Source: Isurus oxyrinchus (lineage: Eukaryota). Taken from it: a stretch of 64,000 bases of DNA. A program made the position numbers and the translations under genes. Shown one piece after another: positions 332-64,000 of the stretch. The DNA is taken from positions 4,216,001 to 4,280,000 of the forward strand of contig JANJGN010000047.1 of assembly GCA_026770705.1 (NCBI GenBank), written 5' to 3'. The notes beneath the pieces are model-generated. The model had not been told where the DNA came from. It did not search any database and saw nothing but the letters and a program-made list of their open reading frames with translations. Each line of letters opens with the position of its first letter. Within the stretch, counting starts at the first letter, position 1.

Positions 332-646
332 AGGCTGTGAAACTGAGACTGGCGAATGGGGGCAGTCGATGCGCAGGAAGAGTGGAGATTCACTACAGAG
401 GGCAGTGGGGGACTGTGTATGATGACAGCTGGGACCTGCAGGACGCCGCTGTTGTGTGTCGGGAGCTGGGCTGCGGGACCGCGGTCTCTGCACCGGGCGG
501 GGCTCACTTTGGGGAAGGCTCCGGGCCCGTTGTGACATATAATGTTGAGTGCAGCGGGAACGAGGCCGCCCTGCGAGACTGTAAATCAGCTTCCTGGGAT
601 CAGAATTCCTGGCTGCACAGCAATGATGCCAACGCGATCTGCTCAG
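332..646 (+). CDS. SRCR exon 1 in window (6 Cys; C2 and C7 replaced)
   Basis: ttttacag|AG...TCAG|gtac; [49 protein letters not shown]...NAICS; 315 bp. Confidence 0.95.
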
Positions 647-3600: not shown

Positions 3601-6600
3601 TACCTTTGTGCTGGTCTGAATATCTAACATCCATCCTTAATTACTGATGGCTGTTTGCTATGCAGTTTGGGATTAATTCTGCTAGCTTTCCGCCAGCTCC
3701 ACATCGTCTCTCACAGGAATTAGCTGTTTTTTTTTCTGCTGCGCGATAGTACAGAAAATCTACTGTGAAATGTAAAGGAAACGATGTAACTATTTTTTTC
3801 AGAAAAAAAAAACAGAAGATGTTAAAACGACTGATTTGGGTAAGAGGTACCTGTGGACAGACAATGTTCACGTTTCACACCAGTAATATTTTGGCACTAC
3901 AACTGTGGAAGCGATATTCAGAGACGACATTCGTTAATGGACAAACGATCCATGAACAACGTTGGTAACCATTATAGAAGGCAGCGATCTGATACTCTGT
4001 CATCCAAATATTTTAATGCATCTGACAGTGTAATTGGTGTCCTGGATCCAATGACCCATAATTATTGAGGGTCATTTTTGTTTTAATCCATTCACCCCTA
4101 TATTATACATTGCAATTCAGGCTACAGATGGAAGGTTACCGGACATTAATTGCCAAGGCCCGTGAAGACTATTCGGTTGCAATGAGTTTGCTTTCTCATG
4201 GCCTCTCACTGACCTCATTACACTAGAAGTGAGGTCTGAGTGAGGAAGAGAGAGAATATTGTTGGAGTATCACTGCCTCCCCATTCAATTGCACATTGAT
4301 TATGGCCTTAAGAGGCTCCCTTTGTATGTGATTGATTATATATATAAGTATGAAATGCTTCAGTGATCTATTAAATTTTATGCTTCGGGAATCAAAAGGC
4401 GATGTACGGGAACATGAACCAATTGACATAAGCTGTCCTTTCAAGTTTGCACTTGGAAGACGGGAAACATTCTGGGGAGCCCGAAATGCACTCCTTAAAT
4501 GATCAGCGTATTAAAACTAAGGCTTGGTTCACAAAACTGTACATGGTTATCCGGTGATTGTTTCGTTTGGATTCAGCTGTCAGTACTTTAAAAATGCTAA
4601 AATAACACGAGCCTGTTTTTGCCCCTTGTATGTGACCGTTACATTTTACTGACATATTCAAAATGGCACTTAACATTGCTTTGTGCTTCCAGTGTTCGGA
4701 ATGTTTCACTGGGAAAGTATTGTGGGATCAATCATTTTATGTTTGAGGTTATTTGGTGTCTGTGTTCGTCAATATGCTCCATCGACGAAAGAACAAACGC
4801 CAGCAGATCAAATGGTAGATTCGAGGACAAGTCAGGGTTCCTGGATTTATCTGAGTAATTTTCTGGCTGGTCACAGGATATGACTAGTTGCAGTCGCCCG
4901 GTTCCAGGGAAGTTTTACGCCCTGAAAGTGTTATGAAGAGAAAGCTGCTGTGACTTCCATATAAGTAGATGTTGTGAAAAGTGGGTCTTATAATTCAAGA
5001 GGGGGGATTGAAAAATGAGGGGCCAGAGGTAGTAAAAGTAGATAAATTGGGACTTTGAGAATAAATATGTATTTAAAACTATTAAATTCAACTCGATAGA
5101 AAATACGGAATGTAAGAGAAAGGGAATTTTTTTGTTGATCAGATGTTTTCCTGCAATGATGGCTGGGTTGGCGGGGGTTGAGGGGGGGGGGGGGTGTCTG
5201 TGGGTGGGGGGAATGTTGCCTGGATGCAACTTGATGTAGTTTCTATTTGGGCATTAGTGCCAATGAAATACCAGCTGTGAAAAGTCGAATTCTTGGTGAT
5301 CTACATCAATGAGATCTATCGACCGAACCTCGAAGGTGTGCACGTGTGTTGGGGTGAAGGATGGTATGGTTGCATTTCAGTCTATGGATTCCGGGCGGGA
5401 ACCGGTATAAGAATAATATGCAATGAAGAACTTTCGCTGCGGGTAGTGCAGAGATTGTTTGACATCAAAGAGCACTTCTCTCTCAATAGATGTTTAGCCA
5501 AGTTCTCTCTGCAGATATAGTGCATGCTTGTAACACTGTACTGAGGTAGCAGTAAATCTAAGTGTGTTAAAGGATGCATGTGGCCTCTTTACAAGCAATA
5601 ACTTCTGGAGGATTGTGGGGTTTAGCGTAATCGTTATTGTGCCGAGATGAAACCCTTATCAGAAGTCATCATCACAGGTTTTGCTTAAACAGATATGCAC
5701 AAAATTAAAAATGATTGGGACAATCATGACTTGTTGTTACTCAGATCACAGGTTTCCCAGACTCGTATCCGTGGATTCCAACTGCTCGGGCAGACTGGAA
5801 ATACAGTTCGGTACAACCTGGGGAACAGTGTGTGATCTTCACTGGGATTGGAATGACGCCAGTGTGGTCTGTCATCAGCTTCAGTGTGGAGTCCCCGTGT
5901 CTGTGGAAAAAGGGGCTTATTTTGGAAAGGGCACTGGAATTCTACGGAGCGATAAATTTGATTGTAAAGGCAATGAGACAAGCCTGACAGACTGCCCTAT
6001 CTCTCCAGTAAATCAAAACGAGTGCACCCACATGAACGATGTCGGTGTGAGCTGTTCCGGTGAGTAGAAAGATTCCGAAACACATAAAGGTTTTCTGGTG
6101 AACTTTTCAGAAACGGAGAAAATGCCATTGCTGTTTCCTTGTATTATGATCATTCCCAAGCACTTCTTTATAGTTCACTGTCGCTTTTTATGATTCTGGA
6201 ATAACGCAATTATGTTTAAGTCAGTAACTTCTGCGTAATCTGAAAATAACGCATTATTATTGCGAAATTAATGCTTGCACCATACATAGGTTTTTCATTG
6301 ACATTTGCCAGAACACCCATTATCGATTGAACTCTCAAGTCGTTTTCTGTCTGCCAAACGTGAAATGACTTCATTAATTATAAAAGTAGGCGAATCAATA
6401 TTTAACTGTGGTTGCATTATTTTAGAGAGGCGTTTCAATGAATTGACCGAAATAAAGTAAATAATTAGGAGAAAATTTCCTTTCTTGTTTCTTGCTCAAA
6501 ATAGTGGGATTATCTCCGTAGAAGCATTGCAACTGTATGTGCTATGTGCCTACGTCAACAGTCCAAGAGAATCAATTTCAATCGCTTCCACAGGGGAATG

Positions 6601-9600
6601 TAGAAAATCGGAATAAATGCAGGCCGTCTCAAATATATTCCTGTCCCCGGCAATAACAACTTCATCCCTTGAGTGACCTTGTTCTGGATTACTGGACACG
6701 TGACTCTTTGCCAAATCTTTGAAATCCATTTAAGATTTTTAACATCGTTTAATCAGCCCTAATCCTTCCAGAGTAAATAGCTTCAAGACATTTTTGTTCG
6801 ATTCGGAATCACAATACAATGTTTAAGTAAATTAAGCATCCTTCTATATATACATTGCATCCCCTCCAAGACGAATAGTTTCTTCCGGAGTGCCCTGTCC
6901 AAATCTGACAGCTGTTATACAGGTTGGTTCTGGCCAATACTGGGTATGACTGAAACGTCACGTCCTCTCTTTGGTATTTCAAAGCTGTTGAGACAAAGTC
7001 CAAAATTCCGTTAGCATTTTCCTGGATGAACCCTCTACTTTGAGCAAACAGACGCGTTCGTTTAAGGGGTTATCGCAGTCTAATGAGTTTCAAACAGTAA
7101 GATGTATAAACAGTGCAGTACAACACGAATTTATAAATTTTCATTCCTTCATTTTTCTTTGTTTCGCCATGTCTATATTCAAATGTTCATTTACAAAATA
7201 TTTTCGTCCTTGTTTTTATTAAAAACAGGGAAGCATGGACCCCGATTGGTTGGTGGTGAGAACAGGTGCTCCGGCCGGGTGGAAGTGCTGCACGGAGAGC
7301 AGTGGGGGACCCTGTGTGATATTCACTTTGGTTTAGAAGACGCCAGTGTGGTGTGTGAGCACCTTCAGTGCGGGGCTGTAAAGGAAATCCCGAGGGTTTC
7401 TCCCTTTGGGCAGGGAGCAGGCCCTGTGTGGAAGGAAAATTACAGGTGCCACAGGAATGAATCGCGGGTGACAGAGTGTCGGGTTACATCCGGGGAACAT
7501 TTTAACTGCTCACATGGAAATGACGCCAGTGTCATCTGTTCAGGTGAGACCTCTCAGTCAATGTAATCATGGATTAAAATAATCTCCCTGCAACACTGAA
7601 AGGGGCCTTTCAGCATGTTCTGTCCATGGAGGCTCTCTGCGAAAGTATCCCACCCACTCACACAACCCTGCAATTTACAATAACTGTGCATTGTTTTTCA
7701 CTCATTTATCTAACGATATATATTTTAAAATCTACGATTCATAATCATCCACCACATCTTCAGGCAGTGCATTTCAGATCCTCGCCGCCACATTCTTAGA
7801 CGATGCTTTTCATATCTTCAAGCACCATATTCTCCAACAATGAATTGCAGATCCTCATCACCATCATTTTCAGAGAGTGCATTTCATATCCTCATCCTTT
7901 GCTTTCTCAGGCAGTGCATTGCAGACCCTCATCATCCACATTCTCCAACAGTACAATGCAGATCATCAAATACCACAATCTTAGACAGTGGATTGTAGAT
8001 CGTCATCCAGCACATTCTCAGACAGTGCATTCCAGATCCTCGTCACTCACATTTTCAGAAAATGCAGTGAAGATCCACATACGCCACATTTTCAGACAAT
8101 GCATTGCAGGTCGACATCCACCACAATCTCAGACAGCATATTTCAGATCTTTATCCACCACCTTCTCGGAAGGTGCATTCCATGTCCTCATTCACCAAAT
8201 TATCTGAAAGAGCATTGCAGATCGTCATCCAGCACATTCTCATACATGTGCATTCCAGACCCTCATCACCCACATTCTCAGACAGTGCATTGCAAATCTT
8301 TATTCCCCGACATTCTCAGGCAGTGGATTGCAGATCCAAATCCACCACATTCTCAAGCAGTGCATTGCAGATCCACATCCTCCACAATCTCAGACCGGGT
8401 GTTTCAGATCCTCACCACCCCCCCCCACCCCCCCCCCCCCCCCACGATCTCAGAATGTGCATGTCAGATAGCTTGAAGCAGATCCTCACCTACCCCCATT
8501 CTCAGCCAGTGCATTGTAGACAATCATCCGTCACATTCTCAGACAGTGTATTGCGGATTGCCATCCAGCATATTCTGGTACATTGCATCTCAGGTCCTCA
8601 TCACCCACATTCTCTGTCAACGCATTACAGATCCTCATCCATCACAATCTAAGACATTGCATTGCAGATCTTAAGCTAGCATTTTCTCAGACAGTGCATT
8701 GCATTTCATCATTCACTACAATTTCAGTCAGTGCATTGCATATCCTCGTCCACCACATTCTCAGGCAGTGCATTGCAGAACGTAATTAATCGCAACATGC
8801 AAAACTAGCATCCTTATGTCACCATTTCCAATTTGTCCATCACCATGAATCTGTACTGATCATTCTTGATCCTTCCGCCAATGGGAACAATTTTTCTGTG
8901 CCGTAATGTCCAGAACCCGAAGGTTGTTTTAGCATTCCCTCTCCAAGTAGAATATTCGTAGCTCACTCAAACAATGTAGAAAAAATACGTTTGTCATCAC
9001 CGAAATGATCTTATGAAGCATTCCTGCATCATTTCTAATGCCTTCATACCCTCCCTAACGTTTGTAGCCCAGAAATGGAAGCATTATTCCAGATGAGGCC
9101 GAAATGAATCATAACATCTTCCCTTCAGTGTACTCTGTGCCTTAGTTATACACCAAAGAACTCCAAACTTTAGCAGACTTTTCGCAACCTGCGCTGTCAA
9201 GTACAATGTTTCTTACAAATGCACCCGAGGTTCGTCAGCTTCTGAAACTCATTCAGAAATGATCCTGTTCTTTATTGTTCCTTCTCCTAGTCCTTCGTTT
9301 GGCAGCCTTACCTCTCTTAAAAACACTCACTTCTAAAGCACAAGGCCTGTTTCAAGAATGACTCAAATTATTTAGCAGAGCAGTCAAGTCTGTGAATGAA
9401 GTGCAGTGCTGTGGGAATGCTGTTCTCTATAATTTTGCTTGTTCCTGGTAAGAGGTTTAATCGATGCCATATCTGCATCAGTGGAGGTTAATAAAAATAT
9501 TTACCATGGGTCTACTTTGAGGGAAACTAGGGAGTCTATCCAAAGTTATCCCTTGATCAACATCAAACAATGTAGCTCATCTGGTCATTATCACACGATT

Positions 9601-12600
9601 TTTGTGCGATTTTACTGCGCCCATTATGGCTGCGGCGTTCCTTAAATTGCAACAGTGCTGACATTACACAATGCAAATAAATGACTGTAACTTGCGCTGA
9701 GGCATCCGGTAGTTTTGAAAAAAATACTAATCTACTTTAAATACGTATTTTTTTTACTTCCAACAAAAATGGGCCAACCAATGCTTCCCTCAACCGAATT
9801 TCGTCTATAACTTTCCGGCCCGTTCTAACAGCTTGTCGGTGTCTGATTTAATTTTAATCTTTCAACATTTTACAACACTTAAAAAAATTCTGTATTCTTT
9901 GAAGAAAAAAAATGAAATTGTTCCCCTTACAACCAAGTCTCGGTAGATATCATGTATTAACGGAAAATCAGGGTTTCTAGCCAGGTGGAATGTCCTGTTC
10001 CTCTGGTCTGGAAAAGAAGAAACGTTGAACACGACGTCCTGTTCCCTTTCAAAGAGCAATTCCATCTCCAATCAGTCATTTTTTTTTTATTCCACAGGCG
10101 CCAAACTTTTCTGCCAAGCAGCTATCGTGACCCTTTGCCAAAGGTCATTTCAAAGTCCATCAAAGCCACATCCACTCCATTAGCCTCATTAACAGTCTCA
10201 CTAACCTCATTAAATTACTCTAGCAAGTCCGTGCAATGCGATTGTCTCTTACCAAAACTACATTTTTCAACTGGCTCTAACTTCTGTCCCAATGTATATT
10301 TTCCAAGGAAACAAAGCTTTCCCAAAGCCAATATTAAACTTACTGGTCCGAATTTACTGCATTTATCCTAACACCATTTCTTGAACAAGGTGTAATATTT
10401 GGAAATTTCATTTGTCGGCATTGAAGAAGGATGGGAACATTATGACCATTATCTGGCGATTTCGGCTCTGACTTTGGTCATGCTCCCCGAATAGACGTCA
10501 TCCAATCCATGTGTCCCGTCAAATTCAACATCAGTTGCCCAAGCCAATTCGTCCTCTTTATAAATATCTAAACACTCCATTTTATTTCATCTGCCTATTC
10601 TTTGTCCAGCATTGAGGAGCATTTTCTTCCTTGGCTAAAAAACATACTCAAAATGCTGACTCAGCAGCTGAGCCATAACATCAGCCTTTATATGCCGATT
10701 TCCTTTTTGGTGTCTGTTTTGTGCCTATATAAGACTGTAAGATCCCGTTTTATGTTAGTGGGAGTCTCTTATATGGTCTGGATATTGTACATTCATCTTG
10801 GATCTCGCTTGCATTATCCAAATTCAATATCCTATCCATATATATTTATTTCTGCTTCACCTTAATCCCCATCTCTTTAATCACCCAGGGAGCCTTTGAG
10901 CTTTTGCATAGTCCTGCACTTGTCTAAGTCAATTTTCCATTATTGCTCCTCAGTCATTTTCAGAGCCTGCACGTCACGAACATCATTTATTGCAATGTAC
11001 GTTCACACACCTGAAAAGTAAATATAATTGAGGCCATTATACAACCCCGGTTGTGCTTATCATGAATAACACCACATTATTTCCTCCGTTATTGCAATCT
11101 TTCTTTTCTACTTTTCTGTGCAGTTTGGTTTTTCTCTCTAACCATATCTGCCCGTTCCCAAATCCCTGACAAATTCATTCTGTACTGTCCAACCAATAAA
11201 CCAGACGGACATTGCCGCCGGATTTTTTTTCATGTGAAACACATGAAAACATCCATTGGTCCTTTCTTCACAGAACTGAGTCTATGAGTGCATGAGAACA
11301 GGTCACAAAGTCACATGAGCTTCATTAGGACTCTCGTGCACCGTTTATCTTGCGACATGTTCATTAGTTCTATCGCTCGTACGTTGTGCTGGGATATTTC
11401 AATATTATCAGGATATTACTCCGTTGATGGCAATTTACTAGATTGTTTGCAACATCCTTAAAAATGATCTGCAGGACTACACCCCTCTTCCTACCTCTGA
11501 AATTGTTCCACTAACGGAGCACGAATGCTGACTGCTCACCCTCCCGCATCAGCGTGCTCAGCAGGGTCCCAGTGATCTGCCTCACCTTGGCACTAGGGTC
11601 AGAACATTTACGTGAATAATCATTGCCCCGGTTATATTGAGTCAGATGTGCATGATTTGTTTGAATGTTACCCCTTGCTCTCATCTTGTAGATGAAAGTT
11701 GGTCACTGAGATTGACGAATGGGGGAAGCCGCTGTGATGGTCGGGTGGAAATTTACCACAACGGTCGCTGGGGCAGAGTACAGGACAGCCTCTGGGACCT
11801 CAATGATGCTACCGTGGTCTGCAAGCAACTAGGATGTGGTGTCGCACTTGCCGCTTATACCTCTGCAATGTATGGAGAGAGTGAAGGGCCTGTGTGGGTG
11901 AATGATGTCCAGTGTGGAGGAAACGAACTGTATCTCCGCAACTGCAGCTCATTTGCAATGAATTCGTCTCTCAATGAAAGTGTCGGCGTCGGGGTTCTGT
12001 GTTCAGGTGAATAAATAGTTCAATTTTACCGGAACATAAATTGAAATATCTAATAAGGAGGGAGGTGTGAATATACGTCACGAGTTCTTTTAACCTAACT
12101 GCTTAGCATTGGAGGGCTAACGTGGGGAGAGTGGGCAAGCACAGAACTGATCAACAAGCAGGACATGCATTTTTGCTGTGCATTTATTAACGACGGAATT
12201 CAAAATTTTCTCTCAAACAGGAAATTCTGACAGCACTTCTGTTAGTGCGGGGCGGGGGGAGTTGTGAGGGGCGGGGCGGTGTGGTGTTGGGAGGGGCCTT
12301 ACAGCTTGGTGCGAAATTGTGTGTTAATTTAACAACGTTTTCATAGAATTGCCGTTCTCATACTCATCAGAGCGACAGGCCGCTCATGGGATTTCTGCAT
12401 TATTCAATCCATGAAAAAACGATGCACTTACAGGTCTTTCAGCAGCAGAAGACTGAGCTTCTATGAAATGTCATTCTTAAAAGTCACTTGGTTTCTTTTT
12501 TCCACTGAAGCTGCCAGATCCCCTGAGGAATTGCAGCATTTTTTTTCAATATAATCAAAATAAAAAAGCGATATAATCAGAAATCGACTGAAATAAGTTT

Positions 12601-15600
12601 TCGAGATACGTGCAGGGGAGAGAAAAAGCTGTGTACAATTGATGTTCATAAGTAGTTTAGGTGGAACGATGAATACAAAAAAGTTCAGTTGAGGTTGAAA
12701 CAGGGCACACAGCACTGAGCACACAATACGTGAACTGCAAGCCAAAATATCGATGGAATCAGGTGTAGGAATATTTGAAATCTTTGTGCACTCCACATTA
12801 TAAATTTCAAGTAATTAGAAAAACATGGTCTCAACTATAGAAACAGTTACCTGTCATAGTCAAGTGATTTGTTCTATTACTTTTGCTGGATAATGTCCAA
12901 TAGTTTCAATTTGTGTTATGACATAAATGCGTAATCGAATCCTCTTAATAAAGATTGTCTTCTTTGGATCAGAACACAAACAGTTAAGGCTGTCAGACGG
13001 TGGAAGCCCATGTGCAGGCCGAGTGGAGATTTACTATAACGGGACCTGGGGCTCAGTTTGTGATGATTCCTGGGATCTGACAGACGCTGACGTCGTTTGC
13101 AAACAGCTGCATTGCGGAAAGGCTTTGGACGTGACACTTCCTGACTCTTGCGGAGCAGGCTCAGGTCCAGTTTGGTTGGAAGGCTTGGAGTGTTCAGGGG
13201 AGGAATCGTATCTCTGGCAATGTCCTTCTGAATATTGGGGTGCCCACGACTGTTCTCATAAAGAAGATGTGAAGATCATGTGCTCAGGTAAGGGTGACGT
13301 AAATGCAATTATTTCCTTCATACGAGAAGATTCAGACAGATGGAATTTTACTGAATGGCCCAGAAACTGTACATCAACTGGTCATTCTGCTCAATGCGTC
13401 TGACTGCTGCTTATTCTGCTCATAATCCTACATCATTTCATGTGGTCTGAGCTGTATTGCACTCTGTATTTTCCCCTCGTGCCTTTATCAAACGTCACAT
13501 TCAAGGCATCACCACAATTCGCCCCCACTAAATGTACATGTTCCATGTTCCACATTCTCCTTCTATCTGGGTAATAGAAAGCGAAACAGAAAATCTCCTA
13601 AATCCCAATTTGTTTGGCTCTTGTGTTTCTTTGTCCGAAAAAATCACGACTTTATTCTAATCAGCATTGAAATAATTTCAGCATTGACAAGCCTATCCTG
13701 CTGTCTCCGACCGTCTTCCTGCAGTTAATGGAACCTGTCTTGGTATTACCTGCAAACCGTAGTGCATTTTGAACATTTACTTCAATTCCAAATACCAAAT
13801 GTAATATGTTAATCTGAAACAGACGTGAGCCCCAGCAATAATCCATGTGTACAGCACGCCCCAATTTCTGCTATTATATATGAAATCCTGCGTTGTCGCT
13901 TGTTTGCTCTTCTATTAATACTGTGCCGGCAATTTCATTTCCCTGTTCTCAGCCTTAATGCAGCTGTTTGAAAACTTTTTGAAAGTTATTGTTTTCAAAA
14001 TCCATGTGGATTACATGGACATTATTATCTCCACATAATCTTTCTGAAACTTCCTCAAGTAATTCAATGAATTGGAAGATCTATAGTTCGCTCTTTTGAA
14101 ATCTGTGTTGATTATCATTGATAATATAATTGGATTGTACATGTATCACTGTTACATTTCTGGAATAATTATCTCTATTCAGTGAACACCTCTGGCACAA
14201 CTTGGGTGGAGGGGGCACTGTTGACATGATTCCATTTATCACTGGAAACATCTGGAGATTTCTTCTTTCATTGATAGAACACAAAGCGTTGCGGCTGGTG
14301 AATGGAAAGCATCGCTGTGAGGGGCGGGCGGAAGTGTTCTACAATGGGATCTGGGGAACAGTGTGTTCGGAAGCACTGGATCGCCATGATGCTGAGGTGA
14401 TCTGTAAACAGTTACAGTGTGGCCCCCTGGTTTCTATAGACTATACCACTCAGTCATTCGGAGAAGGATCCGGACCTATTTGGCTCGATGAAATAGAATG
14501 TATTTCACACGAGTCGACCATCTGGCAGTGTCAGACAGACCAGTGGGGACAACACAACTGTAATCACAAAGAGGATGCAGGCGTTTCATGTTCAGGTAAC
14601 AAAACAAACCTTCCAATGTGCGAGTGTTATTTCATTCATTGATGTCCAAATGAGTCAGCACGTTTCTTTCCTCAACAGGAAGAAAGATAACGAAGGGCCA
14701 GCCCAAAAGTGAAAAGGATTGTGGTCGAGAATCAGGTGATTGCTCCACTTTAATAGATCAATTATCTGAGTTGTCTACCTGTATTTTTGTGCAGAAATAA
14801 TAGTGATTGATTATCTTTGACAGATTCAGATGTAGGTTTGCGCCTGATTGGAGGTAACACCAACTGCTCCGGGCGAGTGGAGATAATGTGCAAAAACAAC
14901 TGGAGCACAGTGTGTGATGACTCTTGGGATATGGCCGATGCCAATGTTGTCTGCAGACAGCTGCATTGTGGCTCTGCTCTATTGGCCACAGCAGGGGCCA
15001 CTTTTGGACAGGGTGGAGGTGACATGTGGTTTGATGAGGTGAGGTGTACCGGAAGCGAATCCTTTCTCTCTGATTGTCCTTCCTTAGCGTCTGCTCAAAC
15101 TGACTGTGATCACAAGGAGGACGCCAGTGTGATTTGTTCCGGTAAGGGTATTGCAGAATGGTGCGAGTAGGGGCCCGGAGATTGGCGGTTGGTGATTGTT
15201 TGCTGAATACGTCTCATGAATTTGTAAATGATGAAAAAGAGATGACTTTCTAAGTTAAAGTTCTATATTTTTTGTTTAATAACCCATAGGTCCAGAGTTG
15301 TCATCGGCTGCTTTTCCATCCACACCCGCAGGTTGGTCTTATGATTAATGAGTATTCCTGTCAAGGCTAATGTTCAGAATGATCTGATATAATTGGCATT
15401 TGCTTGTTTTTATAAAGAAATTCTGAGGTTAATCTTAGTGTTTCAGAATGTTGGACCGTTTAACAATACAAAGCATCCTGTGTCCTAGTTGAATCTTTCT
15501 TTAACATTTCATTAAGGACATGAAGACAATATCACTTCCATCCCTCTTGTGATTGGTATAACAATCGGTATCCTGTTGATCTGTGAGTTCATCCTACTAA

Positions 15601-18600
15601 TTGTGGTAATGCGGAGGCAATCATCAAGGAAAGGTGAGGACAAACATTACCACTCACTTCACATTAAATCTCGGATATTTTTATTTTTTATTTCAATTTA
15701 TGAATGATATTTGAGACTCTCTGGCAGTCCTGCATTCATTGGCCATCCAAAATTGCCCTTGAGAAAGTGGTGATGAGATGACTTCTTGAACCGTTGCAGT
15801 CCATGTTGTATAGGTACACCACCGTACTTTTATGGAGGGAGTTTAAGGATTTGACCCAGCGACTGTGTCAGAACGGCGACAAATATCTAAATAAAAATAG
15901 TGACAGGCTTGGAGGGTGAATTCCAGTAAGTGGTTTTCCCATATCTCTGCTTCGCTTGTCATTCTCCTTGGTTGTTTATGTGGTTTTGGAAGGTCCTACC
16001 TAAGCAGCCTTACTGGATTCTTCAAGTGCATCTTATAAACAGTACACACTGCTGCCACTGTAAGCGGATGATGAATGGAGTGATTGGTTGTGGATATGGT
16101 GCCAAAAAAGCAGAAAGCTTTATTCTGGATGGCGGCAAACCTCTAGAATTTTGTTGTAGCTGCTCTCAAACAGGCAAGTGGATAATATTCAGGAACACTC
16201 CTGATTGTCCCTTGCAGACGATGGAAAGGATTTGCCTAGTTTGGTGTTGAGTTCCTCAGAAGGGTTTCTTGTCTCTTACCTGCTTTTGTCACCACATCAT
16301 TCTAATCACAAGCCCAGTTCAGTTTCTGGTCAATGGAAATGCCTGGGATGTTGTTAGTGGGGGAATCAGTGATGGCAATGCCACTGAATGTCAAAGGCTG
16401 ACAGTTGGATTGCACCTTGTTGTAGATCGTCATTTCCTGGCACTAGTGAGGCACGAATTTTACTCTCCACTATGAATGTCAGGCCTGGATATGGTCCATG
16501 TCTGACAGCATGTGGGCATGGCCTGCTGCAGTAGCTGAGGATTCGGGACTGGTAATAAACATTGTGCCATCATCAGTGGAAATCCTCACGCATGACCTTC
16601 AGATGAAGACATGGTCATTGATGAAACACATGAAGATCGTTGGTCCTAGCACGCTATGCTGAGGAGCTCCTGCATTAATGTCCAACTACTGAAGGATGAT
16701 TGACCTCCAACAACCACAATTCCCTTGTTCTATGCTCACTCTGACTTCAAGCAGTGAAGAATTTCCCCCTGAATCCTATTGGCTCCAGTGTTTTTTTTTC
16801 AGTGGCCTTCATGCCTCATACACTGGCGAGAATTCACTTTATTGCCCTTTTCCATTGAATGTCACTTGTCATGTTGGAAACTTATGTTAAGCAATTTAAC
16901 GAGAATTTTCGTTCAAAGTACTTGGTCAAACAGTGAAATGTGTCATTTAAATTGAAAAATCACTTGACTGTCCACATTTGCAGTCTAATTATTCCACCGC
17001 TGCTGCGTCTGAAGGTCAATCAATTGTTGCAGCCACAGATCTGAAGGTTATTTGAAGCATTTTAGACTTAGTGCCCAGTCATGACGTTTCCGTCATTCGA
17101 AGTCAATCCAATCAGTGTCCGTCCACTCCTTGAGTTTCCGTGCCCTGATGCCCATTCTCATTCTCCATAGCCAGAATCGATCCACAATTTTGAGATGTGA
17201 GACTTCGATGGGATTTTCAGCACCAATTTTTGAATATTGTGTACAATGACATAAGTAACTACTCTGATCTGAACAACCATCACACTCCTGTTCGATGCGC
17301 AAAGCAAATTAATTTTAATGTTGATGCGATACATAAAAGAAAGGTCAGCTCCTCACTCGTCTTTCCAACCTGATGCTCTCAGCAGAATCAATCATTTTTC
17401 CCCTGCTTCTCTTCAGCTAAAATCTCCTTGGGTCTCACGACAGAGTTTTCAGCTGAAATTGATTCCTCCCGGAAACGCCTTGTTTCGTCTTTTCCGACCT
17501 TAATTAAATTTCCCCTAGTCTGATGGAGTTGAACATGCTTCCATGCGGTTACCCACACATGCACACGCCCACACAGACACAGCCCCATGTACATAACGTC
17601 TCTCTCTCTGTCTCTCATTTTATCTCTCTCACACACACAGTTGGATACGCACTCTCTTGTAAAATAAAACGTACTTAACAAAAGATCATTCAAAGCCAGC
17701 TCACTGACTTTTTGCATTCACATTCACCATCTGTTTTGTGATATTATTTGAAAACATTTTAATATTCAGCAAAGTAAAATGCAACAAAATGTTAATCCCT
17801 CCGCATTGTCTCCATCAGCTTTTGCCACTGGCAGTTGGGCTTCACCAATTGATTTGTACCAAGCAATTTATGAAGAAATTGAAAATATACCACCTGTCAA
17901 GGATCCAGCTCTGACCCGTGGCTCAGGTTTGTAACTTCCATTGCAAAGCCAATACGCACTGGGGAACTCCATTTCCGTTTACCCCCGTTAAAAGTCAGGG
18001 CAATGAATGGGCCCAACAGGGATTCCACTCACTTTACTCATGTGAAAGTTTCCTATCTCCGCTTACTTTTGTTATGTGAGAAGAGTAATGAGCTTCTTAA
18101 ATTTCCCAAAATTCTGTGTTACCTAAAGCGTGCTTTGCCGTTTGGTGGAAAATAGCGATCAGATCAGTGTTTCCAACTTCCCAAGGGACTGCTCACTGCA
18201 TTCATTAGGTATCAGACTGACAAAATTATGCAAAGAGAGGATTATAAAACAGAAAATGCAATCCACTCTCATCAACTATGATAGCCTACAGGGCCGCTGA
18301 TCTCAGGGGCTGAGAATCATATTCGGGTATCATTTATCCAACATTATGAATATCTATAATGGAAAGAAAAACACATTCAAACTACTTTCAACAGAATCCA
18401 CGAGAACATTTTTCAATAACTAATAAGAATATGCTAAACACTGGGCCAAACCATTGGGAACAAGAGCACATGGCAAAAAAAGAAATAACGATAAGTTAGG
18501 GAAGAATAACAATGATGGGAAGAATTGTGGTGGCATGCAGGATAAGGGAGAACGTGAAGAAAGATGAAAAATGTAGTTATGGTGATAATAATGACTAGTC

Positions 18601-21600
18601 AATGAAATGATCGTGGATTGTCTAGCAAATTAGTAGAATATTTAACGGTACAAAGTAAGGGTAGGTCAATATGGCATGACAGTGTTCCAAAAAGGAACTG
18701 AAAGAATAAGAGCGGCATTCATGAAATATTAATTAACAACATTATTTTAGTATTCACCAGGGGTAAGAGGGCATGACTTTGGAAAATTAGATTAGGAGTG
18801 ACAACAATTCATTTAAAAAGAAAGTAAACAAAAAAAATCTTACCAAAAAATATCATTGGTCAGAATAGTTTGCATCCATTAATTACGGAAAGAAAATAAG
18901 ATAGCAGAGGCACATTTACAGTGGTCAAACAATTCATTTCAAGCAGTGGTAGTGCCACGATCCTGGCAGGTAACTAAAATTAAATGTGCAATTAAATATG
19001 GAGAAGAAAAATGTCCAGGACAAAAGATCCGTTGCCTGAACGTTGGTTGGAGAAAAACTTATTCAATTGATACAAAGGAGGAAAAGGGTACAAATTAGCA
19101 TCAAACGACTAAAATAGCAGCCAGCAAACACTCGATAATGGGAACTGTCACTTTAGGAACGTCAGCAAAATGTTCAAAAAGGTAACAGCATAGATAAGGT
19201 TAGCAGTGAGGACATACATTCTGTGGATTTGAAAAATAATTTTTGGAACTGTGCCCTTAACATACCGATGGATAATACAAGTACTTACATCTCAGCTATT
19301 GCCCAGTGGGTGTCAAATTTGCTTCTCATTCAATATCTTCTGGCATCCAGTTCCACTCCAGTACTTGCTCAGAAATATCAAGGAGACACTTGAGCAGCTG
19401 ATGCGCTCTTGGCAGTGTTCTCTTTCAGAGTCATTGTTTAAGTGGTGACCAAAATATCTTCTCCTGGAGAATTTAGACATGCCCTTGGTATACTGACAAA
19501 TATGTATATCTTGAACAAAATCACAAAGTCAGATTATCTGCTAATTAGTACATTGTTGTGGTTGCCCGTGGAAAGAATTTTTGTTTACAAATTGTCTGCC
19601 ACCTGTCCCATATTTCAATAGTGATGATACATCACAAGTGTCCATTAGCTGCAAACAGCTTTGGACATATGGTGATCAGGAAAAGCACTGTTTGCTCTTA
19701 TTCATTACATTTACATGGAGTCAAGTGACACCTATGGGAATGAGTAGCCTGCTGCCTGCAAGACAAGAAACAGAGAGTGTTATACAAGGTAGTTATGTAG
19801 GGGGAGGAAAGTGGGAATGGGTATTTAAAACGCATCACTGCTGGGATTACTGTTGTTATAAATTAATCTGAATGATTTAGATTTGGATGAAAACGATATA
19901 TTTTTCTAAATGTATCTAGTGACCAAATTGTGGTGGCTCGGGGCAGTGAAAGCATTTTAAAAACAGACATTAATAAATTTCCGACAAAGAACATACGATT
20001 GGCAAATGAATCTCTACATAATAATTATGGGGAATTTCAATCTAGTATAAAAAGTAAGAATTAATTTTCGATCTGTAACAATGAATCGGAATTAAATACT
20101 AAAATCGTTGAATGCAGGAGTTCAGGGAAACGAATAAAGAAAGAAAATCGATCCAGAATGATCAGGTTATAAAAAACCAAAGCAAACACTAATTTATTTC
20201 TGGATATTTGTCCTTGAATAACAATATTACTCTGTTGAACCTCGATCGAACATTAGTTCGAGGGAATTTGGAATATAATTTAGAGTTCTGACCAGCATAT
20301 TATTATAAAATATAGAGCAGGAGATGATGAGGCTCGCAGCACTTTACAAGAACGAAAACCGTGTTATGAGCAAAAGGAATCCAAAAATGCTGAAAATAAG
20401 GATCATAAAATTCTGGTCTCTTTTTGGTTCCATTGCCCATGAGTTCCTTTCTCCTCCGTCAAATGGTGCGGAATTTACGTCTCTGAAAATGAAAGGGAAG
20501 GGGAGTTTTGGGCAGGGGATTATTTATTGTAACCTCTACTCCAAAGGTCTGAACACTTCTTTACCGTGTGGAGACTATAATGATATAAACAATTGCTCCA
20601 AGAACCAAATTATTTTGTCCCCTTTCTTTAACAGTTTCTGCTTCCATTGTTTCGCTCAATGATATCGAATATTACACCAGCCACATTTTGGATTTCAAAA
20701 GTCTTGGATCGCAAACTCCTGACGAGAACTCATCCAGTATTCAGGGTGGGTAAAGTTTTACTTCCGACCGTCTCGTTTTCATCCTTCGCACTCAGTAATA
20801 TCAACAATCGAATGTGAAGTATTAAAAAGAACAAAAACACCATTAAGTTGCACGGACGATGATATCAGCTACTACAGTGACTTTAGATAAAAGCGCTTCT
20901 GAAATACTTTCAGGCTGATACAATATCATATCAAAATCATGTGATTGTACTCAATAATACAAAGGAGTGAAATGCTTTAACTTAGAGTACATATCATATT
21001 ATTAGTTTCATCACAAGGCCCAGTAACCTGCGAAATGTGCAATGCGCATGCAGGCTGTCGAGATCATTGGGTCAGTGAGACACGTGACATCAAAACATAA
21101 AATAATAATACTGTGACGCGAAATGTTCCAAAAATTATCCACACATTAAACGCCCTCCCCTGTTAGTGCAACTGAACCACTGTTCTCTCCTCGGAATGTT
21201 TTGTTGACAAGTCTCAATGTTATTCCAACTCTTCATTGTTAGCAATTAATCTCAATGAAAGTCGTTTGTTCCTCCCAGCTTTCCGTGATTACGACGATGC
21301 TGAGACTACAGACAATGATTCTAAGGGCGATCACTTGCTGCTGGACCGTGTTCATGATGATTTCGTCACACGGGAAAATACCGGCGGTGATATTTTAACT
21401 CTGGGTGAGACAGAGATTTATTTATCTTCTCAGACTGTCTCTCTGTATTGTTGGTGACTTTCTTATTCTCTGCTAATATCGGTTCTGAAATGACTGATAG
21501 TCCATTGGATGAACTGCGGAGTCTCTCACTAACGGCACATGCGCTGCTTGAATGGTTGGGTAGACAGGTTGTCCGAACTGTTGTGCGCTCCATCCATCAT

Positions 21601-45246: not shown

Positions 45247-46520
45247 GACATGCATTTTTGCTCAAATTGTTAAACTGCTCACCGCGGCTGAACAACTGCA
45301 CAGGTTGTGAATACTAAAGTTTGAAATCTGGCTGGCTAATAGAATGGAGAAGCAGGATGTAATGCCCAAAATGAACGTTGAAAAAAGAGAGGAGAGCATT
45401 GGAGAGAGAGAGAGAGAGCAAAATAATGTAAAGCTATCATCAGTGTGAATCATGCATAAGGTGGGACGGCTGATTTGCTCAGAACAATTATTGAGACAAA
45501 ACTGATTTTAAGTTGCACATACGATGGTGCCACATATAGTGCAGAGTAATGGTGGATCTGCTCGGTGTGAGTTAAAACTGTCAAGCCTTCAAGAGAGTTT
45601 TTTACTGAAGCTTCATTTTCCTTCCTTACTGCAGACTAGGCATAATAGCGTCATGTTTTCATTTCCATGATGTCGATTGACAGCTTCACTATCGTGATTT
45701 AGATACCATCTGACAATTCATTAGAAAAAACATCATGTCAAGAACATGTTTAAATTTATTGATTGAAAATGTGCTGAGGGAATTGATCACACTTGATTTG
45801 TTCCCAACTTACTGGTTCCATAACACAAATGGGCACAGGTAATGATGTTTTTTTTTGTGCAAACTGAACTGTTAAAGACATTTTTGCACTATTATTCTGC
45901 TGAAATATATCCCTTTTGACTAATCCTACTCTGATTTTAATCAGTTTATCCAACTGCCAAATCCATCAGCTCCAGTCTTCCTTCCTGCTCGGATATGACA
46001 TTTCCCCTGTCTTCCTAAGACTATAATTCATTGTCTAGGCCTCCAAATTACTCTCCCAATGGTATCCAGAATGTTGAACTCAATGCGATGTGAGTTCATT
46101 TATTTTATTTTAAAGACTGTTTCGGCAAAACACTGATTGATTCGCATGTACCAGTAGAACGAAGCAGCTGTAATAAACGTTGTCACAAGGAATCCCTCCC
46201 GTTCGAATGCAGCCCAAATGACAATTTCAGACGTTGGATTCCGCCTGTGTAAACTGACTTCCGCCTCTCGGCTGGCACTGCACTGCAGAGTCACTCAGTC
46301 CTTTCTGTGGAATCGATAAAATTGATACAAATTGTTTCAAGATTTCCTGAATCATTGCTGGTTTTAAAAATAAAACCCAATCAAAGGTTCAGAAAAAAAA
46401 CAGCGTGAATCGGATGATGGTCCAGTAAAGTACTAACATCAACCACAGATTGTGCCACCTCCTGCTGTGGCCCCACATCTTAACAATAACATCTATGCTT
46501 TATCTTTCCCCCTCTCCAAG

Positions 46521-47310
46521 TTAACATGGCGGCGATTGCAATCCTTTCCCGAGGAAAATGCGTTCTGCCCAAATGTATAAGTGGGCACCAGCGGGGAAAG
46601 GCTGTGACCGATCTCCCTGTCGTTCTACCTGAAGCGATATTGCAATGGATAGGGGCGCTTTATTTCCTAGATTACTTCCTGAAAATTACTCCTGTGTGCT
46701 ACCTCATAATCACCTTGTCCTTTGAAGCAACAGCGCTTTCCATATGTTTCACAGTCGCTTTCAACTTTGACCGATTCATGGCCATTTGTTGCAAAAAACT
46801 GAGAACAAAGTATTGTACCGAGAAAACTGAAGCTGTCGATTTCGGAACAGTGAGCGTGGTGGGCTGCTTTGTTATGATCTCGTGGTACTTTATCCGGGAA
46901 CCAATAAATAAACTTGATAATATATTGTTACTTCACCCGTATCATCCGTATATTTGATGCTCTTCTGATTTTGCTTCTCAATCTCCCAATGATCAGACAT
47001 CTTGTGGTTTCCAGTAGTATCCGATGAAGTCTCCAGGGCTGTAATAAGAAAGAGGATCGCTAGGAACTAGAGCTGTTGAGCCGAAGGATGTCCACCATTT
47101 TAATGTTCAGAATTTCTGACAATTCAATTCTGTTAATGGCATTCCACCTAGTATATAGCAATTATCTGAATTTCCACAAACTGTTAATATAACAGAAATC
47201 AGAGCAGCAATGCTGCAGCGTCACAATAATTGCACCACCACATGTATTCACATTCTTACCCGGATTAAATTCAGAGAGGAGTTGGTGGACGATGTAAAAC
47301 GCCCATTCAA
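46521..47310 (+). pseudogene. GPR139-like class A GPCR pseudogene (main exon)
   Basis: cctctccaag acceptor, then NMAAIAILSRGKC...FTVAFNFDRFMAICCKKLRTKYCTEKT; the frame breaks after ~46930; TM7/helix-8 remnant MLQ...CTTTCIHILTRIKFREEL at ~47210-47285. Confidence 0.85.
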
Positions 47311-51595: not shown

Positions 51596-53952
51596 CGAAA
51601 AGTTTTACGGGGAATGGACAGGAGATTTGCACTAAATTAAAATTCCTAGAGTGCCGAAGCAGTCACGATGGGCCGAATGTTCCTCAATGCAATGTTTTAG
51701 CTGTGTGACTCTGTGATTCTTATTTGATGAAAGGAAAGTAAAAACAATTCAACTTTGTTTTCTCAGTGAGAGATAAAGTTCAGCCCGGCTGCGATGGACG
51801 TGGGTGGATGTGGACTGTTTGGGCCTCTGGTCATTGAAGAAATTGAGAGTATCAAAGTGCCAGTGTGGCAGATGCAGGACTGGAGGGATAGGATGTACAT
51901 TGTGAAGTGTGGCAATTAGGAACTGGAAATTAATGTTGAGTTTGAGGGCGACGGAGTTATCACGAAGCTGTTTAGGAGACTTCTGCATCATGGGAAGCAA
52001 AATCTAGACAAATATGAAGAAATACTTTCACCGAGGTAGGCAAAGGTGGAGTAAATGGGTATCATAGGACAGTCCTTTTTGAGAGGATTATATGAAGTAG
52101 GGAAAGGTCGGTGGTACAGAGTTGGGGTACCATGAGTTTGGAGGCTGTAGTGGGAAGGCATTCCTTGCATTTGAGTTCGGTGGCAGGCCTGGAAACTACC
52201 ACTTGATTGTACCGTTTGATGTGGTTATGGTCCAGATGGGGTGTAGAAGAAATGCCTGACAGTTGGTACTCAGATTCTGCAAGATAGAGGTCCTATGCCA
52301 GACAGGTATGCCATATTGAGTCCGTCAATTTGCCATTTTATGGATAATGTGTTGCTGTCAATGACTGAACACACACACACAAAACTACAAGTTGATTAAC
52401 TTTGTGATTATAATCCAAACTCATAGAAAAGCCAAAACTCAATTAACTGACATTGTGACTATACAGTAACACTCGGCCATATGCTGGCAACATGGCGTAT
52501 AAAGTAACATTGTGATTAGAAAGTAACCGGAAACCTGGCAAATAAGTAATCATCCTCCAAAGTGATCCAAAACCTTCAAACCTGCGCAATACTAACGTTT
52601 TGGCCATGTTTTTACAAAGCAAACAAAAACCCAAAAGGTTATCCACGTCCCAAGCTGATTGAAGAGCAGGAAATTGCCGGCCTGCTGATGCGCCACCCCA
52701 TTTTAAGAACATAATCGACAGGATTTAAAATTTTCGATCACTTCCAAACTAACACAGAGACATTAGCTACCCGACTGCAATTGAACTAACCCGCTGAGAA
52801 TTAACTGCCTCACTCCGCAGATAGGGAAAATTCCCCACAAACCAACCCTCTTCAACCCGATAAAACAAGGTTAATTTCGAGCAATCTAAAAGGTGTAAAT
52901 GTCGTTCTTCCAGCACAAAATAATCCATTAAGACACATTCTTATCCGTTGAAATAGAAAAATAAGCAAGTCTATTAAAATCAAGCTGCACTGGCCCAACT
53001 CACGTATTGTGAACCCGCAATATGTACCAATGATGTTACGGAACACTCGTAAACTGACACTGTTCCAGTTAACTTGTTAGCAACATAAGCCTATGAACAA
53101 TGGCAAACTGACCCAAAAACAACAAAGTGGCTCAAGAATATCAATCCGACCCGCTGCCGATGTACTTAACATTGTACTCATTTAAAAATAAAAATGAAAT
53201 AAAAGAAAACCTGCAGAGTGATGCACTATCAATTAACAGAACTATTCCAATATAGCGAATAATCACTAAATACAAATTTAAGGTCCATTATATGACTCAT
53301 TCAGCTGAAAGAAAAAGACCCTATAAAATATCCGGTAACACTGAGTTCTCAAATAGCAATCAGATCTATCTATCAGTAATATAATAAATCAATCCATAGG
53401 TTTGATATGAACACAGTAACTGAATAGACTCTCTCATTAAATCTTACTCATTTTATACAGGCTGACTCACAGCAATGAGACGGGCGTACGAATGCTCTGC
53501 ATTAGCATTTTTAATCATCAACCGCCAATTAAAAAAAAGCTAAAACTATGTGAACAAAGGCAAGGTCGTCGCACAGCCTTCGAAGGAAAGCCGGGGACAA
53601 TTGTGGACCGATTAGAAAACGGTATGCACATCAGGCAAAGTCATCGCCCGCCTTCAACCGACAGCTCGGTACTATTGAGGAGTAAGGAGAAAATGGTTTG
53701 GACGTTAGTTACATTCACTTAATGGCCTTTGAAGTGTGGTTCTGACTACCAAAGAGACAGTCCATTGTCGGCAGAGGGAATCCTTGTTGTACTAAACTAA
53801 TACTTTGGTTGTGTCTCTATTGAGGAACAGATGTTTGTTAAAGTGGGAGTAAATGAGTAGCAATTGGCGACATTGAACATGAAACAACATTGATAAATTG
53901 GTTCTCTGTAAACGCCACATAGTGTTAAAAGTAGCAATATCACCTGATATAT

Positions 53953-54099
53953 AAAACAAAAACAGAATTACCTGGAAAAACTCAGCAGGTCTGGCAGCAT
54001 CGGCGGAGAAGAAAAGAGTTGACTTGTCGAGTCCTCATGACCCTTTGACAGAACTTGAGTTCAAGTTCAAGAAAGAGTTGAAATATAAGCTGGATTAAG

Positions 54100-54130
<31 letters not shown>

Positions 54131-54559
54131 TGTGGGGGGTGGAGAGAGAGAGAGAGAGAGAGAAGTGGAGGGTAGTTGGTGTGGTTGTAGGGACAAACAA
54201 GCAGTGATAGAAGCAGATCATCAAAAGATGTCACATCTTTTGATGATCTGCTTCTATCACTGCTTGTTTGTCCCTACAACCACACCAACCCCCTCCACTT
54301 CTCTCTCTCTCTCTCTCTACCCCCACCGCCGCCCCCCCCCCCCCCCCCCACCCCCCTCACACACACACACACACACACATTAAACCAGCTTATATTTCAG
54401 CTCTTTCTTGGACTCGAACTCAAGTTCTGTCGAAGGGTCATGAGGACTCGAAACATCAACTCTTTTCTCCTCCGCCGATGCTGCCAGACCTGCTGAGTTT
54501 TTCCAGGTAATTCTGTTTTTGTTTTGGATTTCCAGCATCCGCAGTTTTTTTTTTGTTTT
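53953..54559. mobile_element. ~600-bp palindromic Penelope 3'-end insertion with 17-bp target-site duplication
   Basis: Symmetry centre at 54232 (aaaagatgt-c-acatctttt); tatcacctgatatataa occurs at 53938-53954 and 54560-54576. Confidence 0.95.
54423..54461 (+). ncRNA. Minimal hammerhead-like motif (mirror copy on the - strand at ~54016-54054)
   Basis: agtt-CTGTCGA-a-gggtc-atgag-gactc-GAAA-ca-TC-aact. Confidence 0.5.
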
Positions 54560-57500: not shown

Positions 57501-58749
57501 AGGTGTAATCATATTCCTAAAAGTTCTGAGAGGGCAATTGGACAAGTAGTAGCAAATGGCTCATTTTCAAACTAATGGAGGAAAAACAATAGTTGTGACT
57601 CACCACTTCTTTTGTAAGTTTCTGCTGTAAGTTTCAATGATCCCGTACAGTTTTGGTGACTTATTTCCTTTCCCTCCTCACAGGAAAAAAGGGTAGGAAA
57701 GGGACGTCGATACATTGTAGCCATTAATGGGCAGTTTCGGTCTCATTGCTCTGTGTTGCCAGGCGGCATTTTCGAGCTCTTACATGACCACATCTACCGG
57801 TTAATTGGAAGAAAGAAGCCACCTCTGTACAAACCGTTTTCAAATAATTAACTGCCACCTCAGCCGAGTTTTCAGAAGGTGTTGGAAGGAGAGCCACGCA
57901 GCGGTTAATGTTCAAGTCCCATCGCCGGAACGCACTGCCGGGACACTGCTGCGGTCCTTCCTGACTCTAAGTGCACTGCAGCTTCTGAACGTTGAGCGAT
58001 TACCATGTGACAGTATTATGTTCTCTATTGAGGCTCCCAAAATTATTAAACAATTAACCATATCAAGACATGGACTGGTATTTACTACTTAAAATATTGG
58101 GATGTTATGGAAGGCAGTTGTGGACGTGTTTTCAAAATTCACACTTCTACCCAGTGTCTCATGGAATATTGATGCATAATAATATAGAGTGAGACGATGG
58201 GAGTTCAGCACATTTAAAACATGTTCGGTTGCGCATTGAAAGTGCAGCAGCTCACAAAGCAAGTAATCAAAACTGGAAAGTGGGATTAGGCGGGAAGCTA
58301 GTTTTGGACCCGCGCAGGCACGTTTGATCATAGACCCTCATTCTTTGCTATAAATTGCGATGGTTTCGCGCGTGAATTCAGGTCCATCTTCTCTATTGGC
58401 AGCCACCTGATGTTTCTGTGCCGTATCGTTCGACAGGAGTTGAAAGACTTCCCGGCTGAGAAAACTAAACATCTGTGACGCAGAGGGCTTTCCCGCCAGA
58501 TAGCATTGGAGTCGGGGCGTTATTGATTGAAAACGGGCGTTATACATTTAGCTACGTCCTTTATTCATATCGTTTGAATTGAAGATTGAAGTGGCAAGTT
58601 CACTTAGCCAAAATTTTGTTTAATGACTATCTTAGGCAGTTCAATTTATTTCGACATCGATCGTTTTGAATTATATGTAAAACTTATTACATCTTATTGA
58701 CGAGAGTTTCAATATCCATTTGATATTTACATCAGAGACATTAAAATCC

Positions 58750-63858: not shown

Positions 63859-64000
63859 CTTTGGTTCAAAGGACAAAATAACCTCGTTGTTGCTTTTAAG
63901 AAATAACATTTCTTGCACAAATGCAGCAGGAACATTAGGTGGACACTCCGGGGTGAATCCACACAGGACAATCCATTCTGTCCAGATATTCTATATCCCA

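Follow-up and report, generated by a model that had tools for sequence, protein, structure and literature searches.

A large SRCR receptor gene family in the shark Isurus oxyrinchus, with a conserved tyrosine tail and a variable first domain, placed by sequence on the WC1/CD163c branch

Introduction

In cattle, the only animals in which WC1 function was tested, WC1 is encoded by 13 genes; its SRCR domains bind bacteria, its tail is phosphorylated by Src-family kinases, and the T-cell receptor (TCR) signal is boosted on co-clustering (PMC8356672). Individual cells make use of a few of the WC1 genes (PMC5949365). For sheep, up to 50 genes were estimated; among the domains of WC1, it is domain 1 that varies most (PMC2681482). 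Receptors of the WC1 type were followed back to chicken (18 genes) and platypus (10 genes) and associated with species in which gamma-delta T cells are abundant (PMC2906472). The same work states that WC1 and CD163c-alpha share the motif Y-(Q/E)-(D/C/E)-(I/L), whose phosphorylation is required for the effect of WC1, and treats domain n as diagnostic both of CD163c-alpha and of the WC1/CD163c hybrids in chicken (PMC2906472). Here, we describe an SRCR gene, and the family to which it belongs, in a 64,000-nucleotide stretch of the shark Isurus oxyrinchus (assembly GCA_026770705.1, contig JANJGN010000047.1, positions 4,216,001 to 4,280,000), called the window below. An earlier sequence-only reading of this stretch had proposed a WC1-type signalling tail on a receptor probably from a cartilaginous fish.

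Gene structure and placement among group B SRCR proteins

The window SRCR gene is an intact open frame of 966 amino acids in 16 exons (Table 1), all 16 in phase, with introns that are all GT-AG and all phase 1. Seven SRCR exons lie on the plus strand, one exon per domain, and contain 6, 8, 8, 6, 9, 8, and 9 cysteines in domains 1-7. The encoded layout is a leader, a variable domain 1, two b/c domains, n, d, e, and d' domains, a membrane helix, and a tail. The sequence-only reading had already recognized the small phase-1 exons that build the tail and had named the three tyrosine motifs; YEEI and the DYDDAE tyrosine lie exactly at the positions that it gave. The gene extends beyond the stretch covered by that reading (15517..21404) to a further coding exon, and upstream of the window there are two leader exons. 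White-shark proteins are the closest named relatives, in line with the expected cartilaginous-fish origin, with 96% identity in the last SRCR exon and 92-93% over the whole model, including the same three tyrosine motifs. Pfam recognizes seven SRCR domains in a white-shark relative, and no CUB or ZP domain.

Table 1. Exons of the SRCR gene and neighbouring features. Positions refer to the window (G000:C47:4216001-4280000) unless a contig position is given.
Feature	Position	Strand	Remarks
Leader exon 1	G000:C47:4210764-4210809		Upstream of the window; part of the 16-exon frame
Leader exon 2	G000:C47:4215584-4215616		Upstream of the window; part of the 16-exon frame
SRCR domain 1 exon	332..646	+	6 Cys, without C2 and C7; hypervariable between paralogs
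SRCR domain 2 exon	5745..6059	+	b/c type by tree
SRCR domain 3 exon	7229..7543	+	b/c type by tree
SRCR domain 4 exon	11692..12006	+	n type, 6 Cys; joined to next exon in contigs
SRCR domain 5 exon	12973..13287	+	d by position and best match only; joints in contigs
SRCR domain 6 exon	14278..14595	+	Sister to tetrapod e domains; joints in contigs
Inter-domain exon	14679..14735	+	Joints in contigs
SRCR domain 7 exon	14824..15141	+	d' type, membrane-proximal; joints in contigs
Stalk exon	15290..15331	+	Joints in contigs
Transmembrane exon	15517..15633	+	AG/GT-bounded, phase 1; Glu within helix; joints in contigs
Tail exon 1	17819..17926	+	YEEI at 17869-17880; AG/GT-bounded, phase 1; joints in contigs
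Tail exon 2	20635..20745	+	IEYYTS from 20664; AG/GT-bounded, phase 1; absent from one contig's splice form
Tail exon 3	21279..21404	+	DYDDAE, Tyr 21290; AG/GT-bounded, phase 1; donor read through in one contig
Last coding exon with stop codon	24011..24060	+	Found from loose contig ends
GPCR-like fragment	46490-46954	+	Piece of a seven-transmembrane receptor gene
Old copy of upstream region	~52100-63900	+	~68% identical to the SRCR gene's own upstream region
Leader exon of old copy	57946-57990	+	Without start codon and donor site

Single-exon domains with eight cysteines, or six where C2 and C7 are lost, mark the protein as a group B SRCR member, and the b/c, d, e, and d' types with an inter-domain exon before d' are those of the CD163 family. 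The main tree included 125 domains and 101 columns, with rows picked from 281 by dropping repeated domains and most species; for P0012, named CD163 and in fact a fused CD163 and WC1 gene model, only the WC1 part was used. Domains 2 and 3 fall inside the b/c clade (support 100/99), and the tetrapod e domains are the sister group of domain 6 (100/96). In a further tree, domain 7 clusters with d' (97/84). Domain 4 groups with the n domains of turtles and birds (100/99), in a starred clade of 12 mostly six-cysteine rows from chimaera, sharks, skate, lungfish, frog, sardine, turtles, and birds, without a ruminant WC1 or CD163A member. The label n rests on position and cysteine pattern as in PMC2906472, carried over through the turtle and bird proteins. 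A single domain precedes the b/c pair; this domain 1 lacks C2 and C7, the same six-cysteine pattern as in sheep WC1 domain 1, and in the tree it groups only with a lungfish domain.

Based on these domain types, we assign the gene to the WC1/CD163c (SCART) branch and not to CD163A; the known form nearest to it is the WC1/CD163c hybrid of birds and turtles rather than ruminant WC1. The earlier claim, made there for function, that the gene is closer to WC1/SCART than to CD163 is upheld for the sequence by the n domain and by the tail profile described below, except that ruminant WC1 is not the nearest form. The proposed origin near the base of jawed vertebrates agrees with an n domain common to chimaera, rays, sharks, lungfish, frog, turtles, and birds. 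Two results speak against this placement. No eutherian SCART1 was among the 120 matches listed by a search aimed at mammalian SCART1, and domain 1 and ruminant domain a did not form one clade in three trees; a forced grouping of the two was neither rejected nor demonstrated by the approximately unbiased test (p = 0.23).

Three identities were considered and rejected. CD163A is contradicted by the lack of any window domain grouping with h-i-j-k and by a 138-residue tail in place of the short YREM tail. WC1 itself is contradicted by seven domains including n, against an a-b-c-d-e-d' or 11-domain layout without n. DMBT1 is contradicted by the membrane anchor, the lack of CUB and ZP domains, and the position of the domains outside the DMBT1 clade.

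The closest described system is formed by the chicken WC1/CD163c-alpha hybrids (GgCD163_1 and _8, with the cassette c-n-d-e-d'; PMC2906472) together with similar turtle and bird proteins. In common with the shark receptor they have a unique N-terminal domain, b/c, n, d, and e domains, an inter-domain exon, d', and a membrane helix, followed by Y-E-E-I and YDD-type motifs in the tail, and they are multigene. They differ in domain 1, which has six cysteines in the shark and eight in the turtle and bird proteins treed, in the absence of the shark's helix Glu, in copy number (~100 in the shark, 18 in chicken), and in the tail, which is shorter in the shark and has one YDD-type motif. WC1 resembles the shark family in its multigene array with a most variable, six-cysteine domain 1, a tail on at least four exons with a YEEL/YEEI-type motif, and tail-length variants, whereas it has 6 or 11 domains, no n, and no membrane Glu, and direct tail similarity is weak. 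With CD163c-alpha/SCART1-2 (m-l-b-c-n-d-e-d'), compared by domain layout and motif, the b/c-n-d-e-d' cassette, the six-cysteine n domain, and Y(Q/E)(D/C/E)(I/L) are shared; however, where m-l would stand, the shark has a single variable N-terminal domain, and mammals have one or two genes. CD163A (M130) has the b-c-d-e-d' domains, the inter-domain exon, and type I topology in common with the shark receptor, which in contrast lacks h-i-j-k, contains n, has a long three-tyrosine tail, and is multigene. DMBT1 shares group B SRCR repeats and the same ligand-site geometry, and differs in the points on which it was rejected. As a separate observation, ruminant WC1 gene models of goat (P0248) and muntjac (P0257) contain 9-13 tandem copies of domain a.

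The tyrosine tail and the membrane helix

The tail of the window receptor has 138 residues and five tyrosines, spread over four exons. Its first exon carries the Y(Q/E)(D/C/E)(I/L) motif of CD163c-alpha/SCART and WC1 in the form YEEI. For the comparison of tails, proteins were grouped by taxon; 65 chondrichthyan proteins were examined, and 13 without a predicted helix were set aside, leaving 52 tails. The first tyrosine motif was found in 35 of these 52, in all 32 turtle tails, in 16 of 17 bird tails, and in 3 of 3 marsupial tails, as well as in 8 of 11 tails of a ruminant-plus-tenrec WC1 set; none of 10 CD163A tails had it. The middle YYT motif is also present in turtles (29 of 31 long tails). 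On a profile made from amniote tails only, the shark tail scored 23.9 bits, a value reached by none of 2000 shuffles and by 1 of 1000 shuffles that kept the three motifs, and on the CD163A tail profile it scored -1.1 bits. In keeping with the expected conservation in orthologues, the white-shark proteins carry all three tyrosine motifs and most chondrichthyan tails the first one; the tyrosines are also fixed among paralogs.

The tail comparison also has its opposing side. On a profile of mammalian WC1 only, the shark tail scored 4.7-4.9 bits, and 77-138 of 1000 motif-keeping shuffles reached that; the link of the tail to WC1 thus runs through turtles and birds. In addition, the amniote profile gave CD163A tails scores as high as 17.6 bits, so all these tails share ancestry. 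Such ancestry would suit a receptor that acts as an endocytic scavenger like CD163A, with YEEI as an internalization signal, and YEEI does match the Yxx-hydrophobic consensus of such signals. We regard this as very improbable: no h-i-j-k domains are present, the CD163A profile gives a negative score, three conserved tyrosine motifs extend over four exons, and the shark genes are many with a variable tip, while CD163A is single-copy (PMC2906472).

An acidic residue lies within the membrane helix in 43 of the 52 chondrichthyan proteins and in 0 of 87 proteins from bony vertebrates. The Glu of the window gene is common to most shark and ray members, and none of the chimaera proteins has it.

Splicing of the tail exons

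The pattern Y[QE][DE][IL] alone is not rare, occurring four times across the window's six frames, so support for the tail was taken from the white-shark motifs and from exon joints in contigs. Among the 20 public runs listed, none was recorded as RNA and none carries a tissue label; the RNA nature of those used was guessed, and the joints, not the labels, are the evidence of splicing. Contigs were obtained from six presumed-RNA runs of two organisms, five of which gave cover (X4 gave none), X1-X4 being one sample. From domain 4 onward, tail included, the exons are joined in these contigs where predicted. The joint of the transmembrane exon and tail exon 1 was found in contigs X1 and X6, that of tail exons 1 and 2 in X1 and X7, and that of tail exons 2 and 3 in X1, X2, and X7; the loose ends of X2 and X7 led to the last coding exon. 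Tail exon 2 is skipped in X6, and the X1 contig continues past the donor of tail exon 3. In the exons of this region, paralogs share 97-100% identity, and the contigs have G at 17819 where the window has C, so splicing is demonstrated for the family, not for the window copy. At this family level, every tail junction is spliced in these RNA-like contigs.

Copy number and subfamilies

Searches across the 4.98-Gb assembly gave 118 matches to the YEEI exon among 128 candidates scored, on 53 contigs. At least 104 YEEI-exon loci lie 1-12 kb behind a last-SRCR exon, the best 115 last-SRCR matches being used. Subfamily A has 19 copies, including the window gene. Subfamily B has ~30 copies, with no domain 2 in 10 of the 10 read, and subfamily C has 53 domain-1 matches and a domain 2 that is ~20 residues shorter. 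Tails were read in 19 A, 10 B, 17 C, and 3 other copies. All 49 first tail exons contain YEEI or YEDI, the second tail exons read contain a YYT-type motif throughout (18/18 in A, 10/10 in B, 16/16 in C), and the third tyrosine is present in 45 of 45 third tail exons read, as YDDA, YEDA, YGDA, or YDGA. In subfamily C (L127-L143), 9 of the 16 second tail exons have a stop directly after YYTS; with that exon spliced in, the tail would be short. Other sharks are multi-copy too, with 13 rows from one Mustelus species among the 120 matches listed.

Several further arrangements were observed. Domain-1 exons are repeated in tandem within single genes at G000:C47:4434481-4438422 (two) and C62:550080-557610 (three), and a copy near 521732 of C87 has neither domains 5-7 nor a membrane exon. 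The n-domain SRCR genes L219, L224, and L225 (G000:C2 ~236.5-237.5 Mb; C9 80.49 Mb) make up another cluster, which is more distantly related.

Diversity of domain 1 and the origin of the copies

As in WC1, the shark family is a multigene array in which domain 1 varies more than the others. Diversity was estimated pairwise and by codon models, with exons of damaged copies included. The intact domain-1 exons sampled from A-C encode 62 different domain-1 proteins, and nonsynonymous diversity (pN) in domain 1 is the highest of each subfamily, at 0.067 (A), 0.076 (B), and 0.052 (C), against maxima of 0.024, 0.051, and 0.031 in other exons. The variation lies in three patches, codons 29-32, 68-72, and 84-97, which make up 23 of 104 codons and carry 73% (A), 69% (B), and 55% (C) of differences. 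Codon models gave patch omega values of 6.0 (A), 3.3 (B), and 6.9 (C), with p values of 1e-4, 2e-3, and 2e-5 against omega = 1, while omega is 0.45-0.69 in the framework outside the patches and 0.06-0.63 at the matching positions of domains 4 and 7.

The variable patches coincide with a known binding site. DMBT1 binds cations through D1019, D1020, D1058, D1059, N1081, and E1086 (PMC7043408), and the six domain-1 positions aligned to these residues all lie inside the patches. They account for 19-32% of replacement differences, with permutation p values of 1e-4 (A), 3e-3 (B), and 4e-3 (C). The sites were mapped by gapless alignment and spacing; a single-sequence AlphaFold model of domain 1 (mean predicted local distance difference test score of 44) was not used. 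Since this face aligns with the cation site used by DMBT1, MARCO, CD6, and CD163, it may be the ligand site of domain 1. Many copies lack the acidic residues of the cation site, so binding need not be calcium-bridged.

Several considerations weaken the case for selection. The patches were defined on A, which makes the result for A circular; B and C are the test, and some of their sequences had been seen before the limits were set. The omega values come from one tree, and gene conversion can inflate them. When patch pN is compared with patch pS (the synonymous counterpart) alone, the difference is significant in C only (p = 0.054, 0.116, and <0.001 for A, B, and C). The positions that vary in ruminant a domains are correlated with those of the shark (rho 0.37), but ruminant d domains vary likewise in these loops (rho 0.31), so part of this is general loop tolerance.

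The copy number itself could be mostly a by-product of segmental duplication, partly of unpurged haplotypes, with domain-1 diversity caused by gene conversion or by escape from pathogens that use the receptor, and no recognition repertoire. Damage is common: in 12 of the 19 A copies there is a frameshift, a stop, a splice lesion, or a loss of exons, and several lesions are common to more than one copy. The SRCR gene and a GPCR-like segment have also been duplicated as one unit, the fragment having been copied along in 16 places. Within A, and likewise for two pairs from C, nearest-neighbour copies differ by 0.33-1.16%, with certain copies only 0.33-0.47% apart over ~6-10 kb, and some could be alleles. 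Synonymous diversity is raised in A domain 1 as well (0.060, against 0.011-0.030 in the other SRCR exons of A). This explanation is nonetheless improbable. The same patches are hit in three separately expanded subfamilies with framework omega below 1, and other sharks have many paralogs as well. The closest copy of the window gene (0.41%) shares its contig, and close pairs are therefore not necessarily alleles; halving the census still leaves more than 50 loci, to be set against the counts given above for cattle, chicken, platypus, and sheep.

Proposed function and the cells concerned

The reading that we favour, and hold to be reasonably probable, is a type I receptor of the WC1/CD163c branch in a family of ~100 copies, likely WC1-like, with microbes bound by the variable tip and signals passed on by the fixed tyrosine tail. 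Each copy would have its own ligand, microbial or changing fast for another reason, bound through the variable face of domain 1, and all copies would signal through the common tail. Phosphorylated YEEI is the preferred ligand of the Src SH2 domain. Clustering of the receptor may allow a Src-family kinase to phosphorylate YEEI, as with the YEEL of WC1, and YDD[AV] may recruit an SH2 adaptor of the SLP-76 kind; the SH2 domain of SLP-76 binds YDDV sites (PMC5807685).

The least certain part concerns the cells. We suggest, with some hesitation, that they are T cells, probably gamma-delta-like, in which the receptor would amplify antigen-receptor signals; by analogy with relatives, a T-cell co-receptor role is plausible. 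The tested amniote relatives WC1, bovine CD163c-alpha, and mouse SCART2 are on gamma-delta T cells (PMC2906472), and a CD163-like gene of cod marks a TCR gamma/delta cluster (PMC9276791). Alternatively, the family could encode diversified signalling pattern-recognition receptors of phagocytes, granulocytes, B cells, or barrier epithelia that act alone and not beside the TCR, and a variable tip with fixed tyrosines fits this equally. A bamboo-shark cluster-marker table (8,645 rows in three cluster sheets), read at the level of main clusters and from a data set with low TCR delta, lists no gene named DMBT1-like, M130, scavenger, CD163, or WC1 in any cluster, T cells included; this tells against T cells, although the table is equally blank for myeloid and B clusters. 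The text and one supplement of a nurse-shark spleen paper make no mention of the family (PMC10529500). In tongue sole, genes named DMBT1-like, linked to the shark family by name only, mark macrophages, neutrophils, and hepatocytes besides T cells. The membrane Glu, with no counterpart in the bony-vertebrate helices, hints at a partner other than that of WC1. Given the gamma-delta expression of the relatives, a stand-alone receptor outside T cells is unlikely in our view, and the WC1-like co-receptor remains preferred.

Neighbouring features

The GPCR-like fragment of the window, which we take to be GPR139-like, has no Pfam match. Its 16 near-identical copies, including that of the window, are on A contigs downstream of SRCR genes, and relatives of 328 codons lie ~36-45 kb downstream of several C genes. 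Behind it is the old copy of the SRCR gene's upstream region; no SRCR exon follows this copy within 30 kb, and none was found in the 30 kb past the window.

Implications for SRCR receptor evolution

In the literature on WC1, SRCR expansions, and single-cell data in sharks, with subscription journals largely outside coverage, no paper describing this family was found. The automatic names at NCBI are "antigen WC1.1-like" for some members and "DMBT1-like" for most, and under such database names the family has been hidden. What is added here is the splicing of the family's tail, the copy census, and the replicated selection test. WC1-type receptors had been traced to chicken and platypus; a spliced, intact, multi-copy family of cartilaginous fish shifts the layout, along with the signalling tail, back to the ancestor that jawed vertebrates have in common, and makes macrophage CD163A look like a derived form. 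A more far-reaching proposal, which is possible but doubtful, is that sharks have a germline repertoire of 50-100 WC1-like receptors with a selected ligand face, serving as microbe co-receptors of gamma-delta-type T cells and engaging a partner through the elasmobranch-specific acidic membrane residue, and that the hybrid a-like/n layout was ancestral to WC1, SCART, and CD163A. A repertoire this large, with selection on the ligand face, makes the family a candidate innate-diversity system of sharks, comparable to the KIR or Ly49 arrays.

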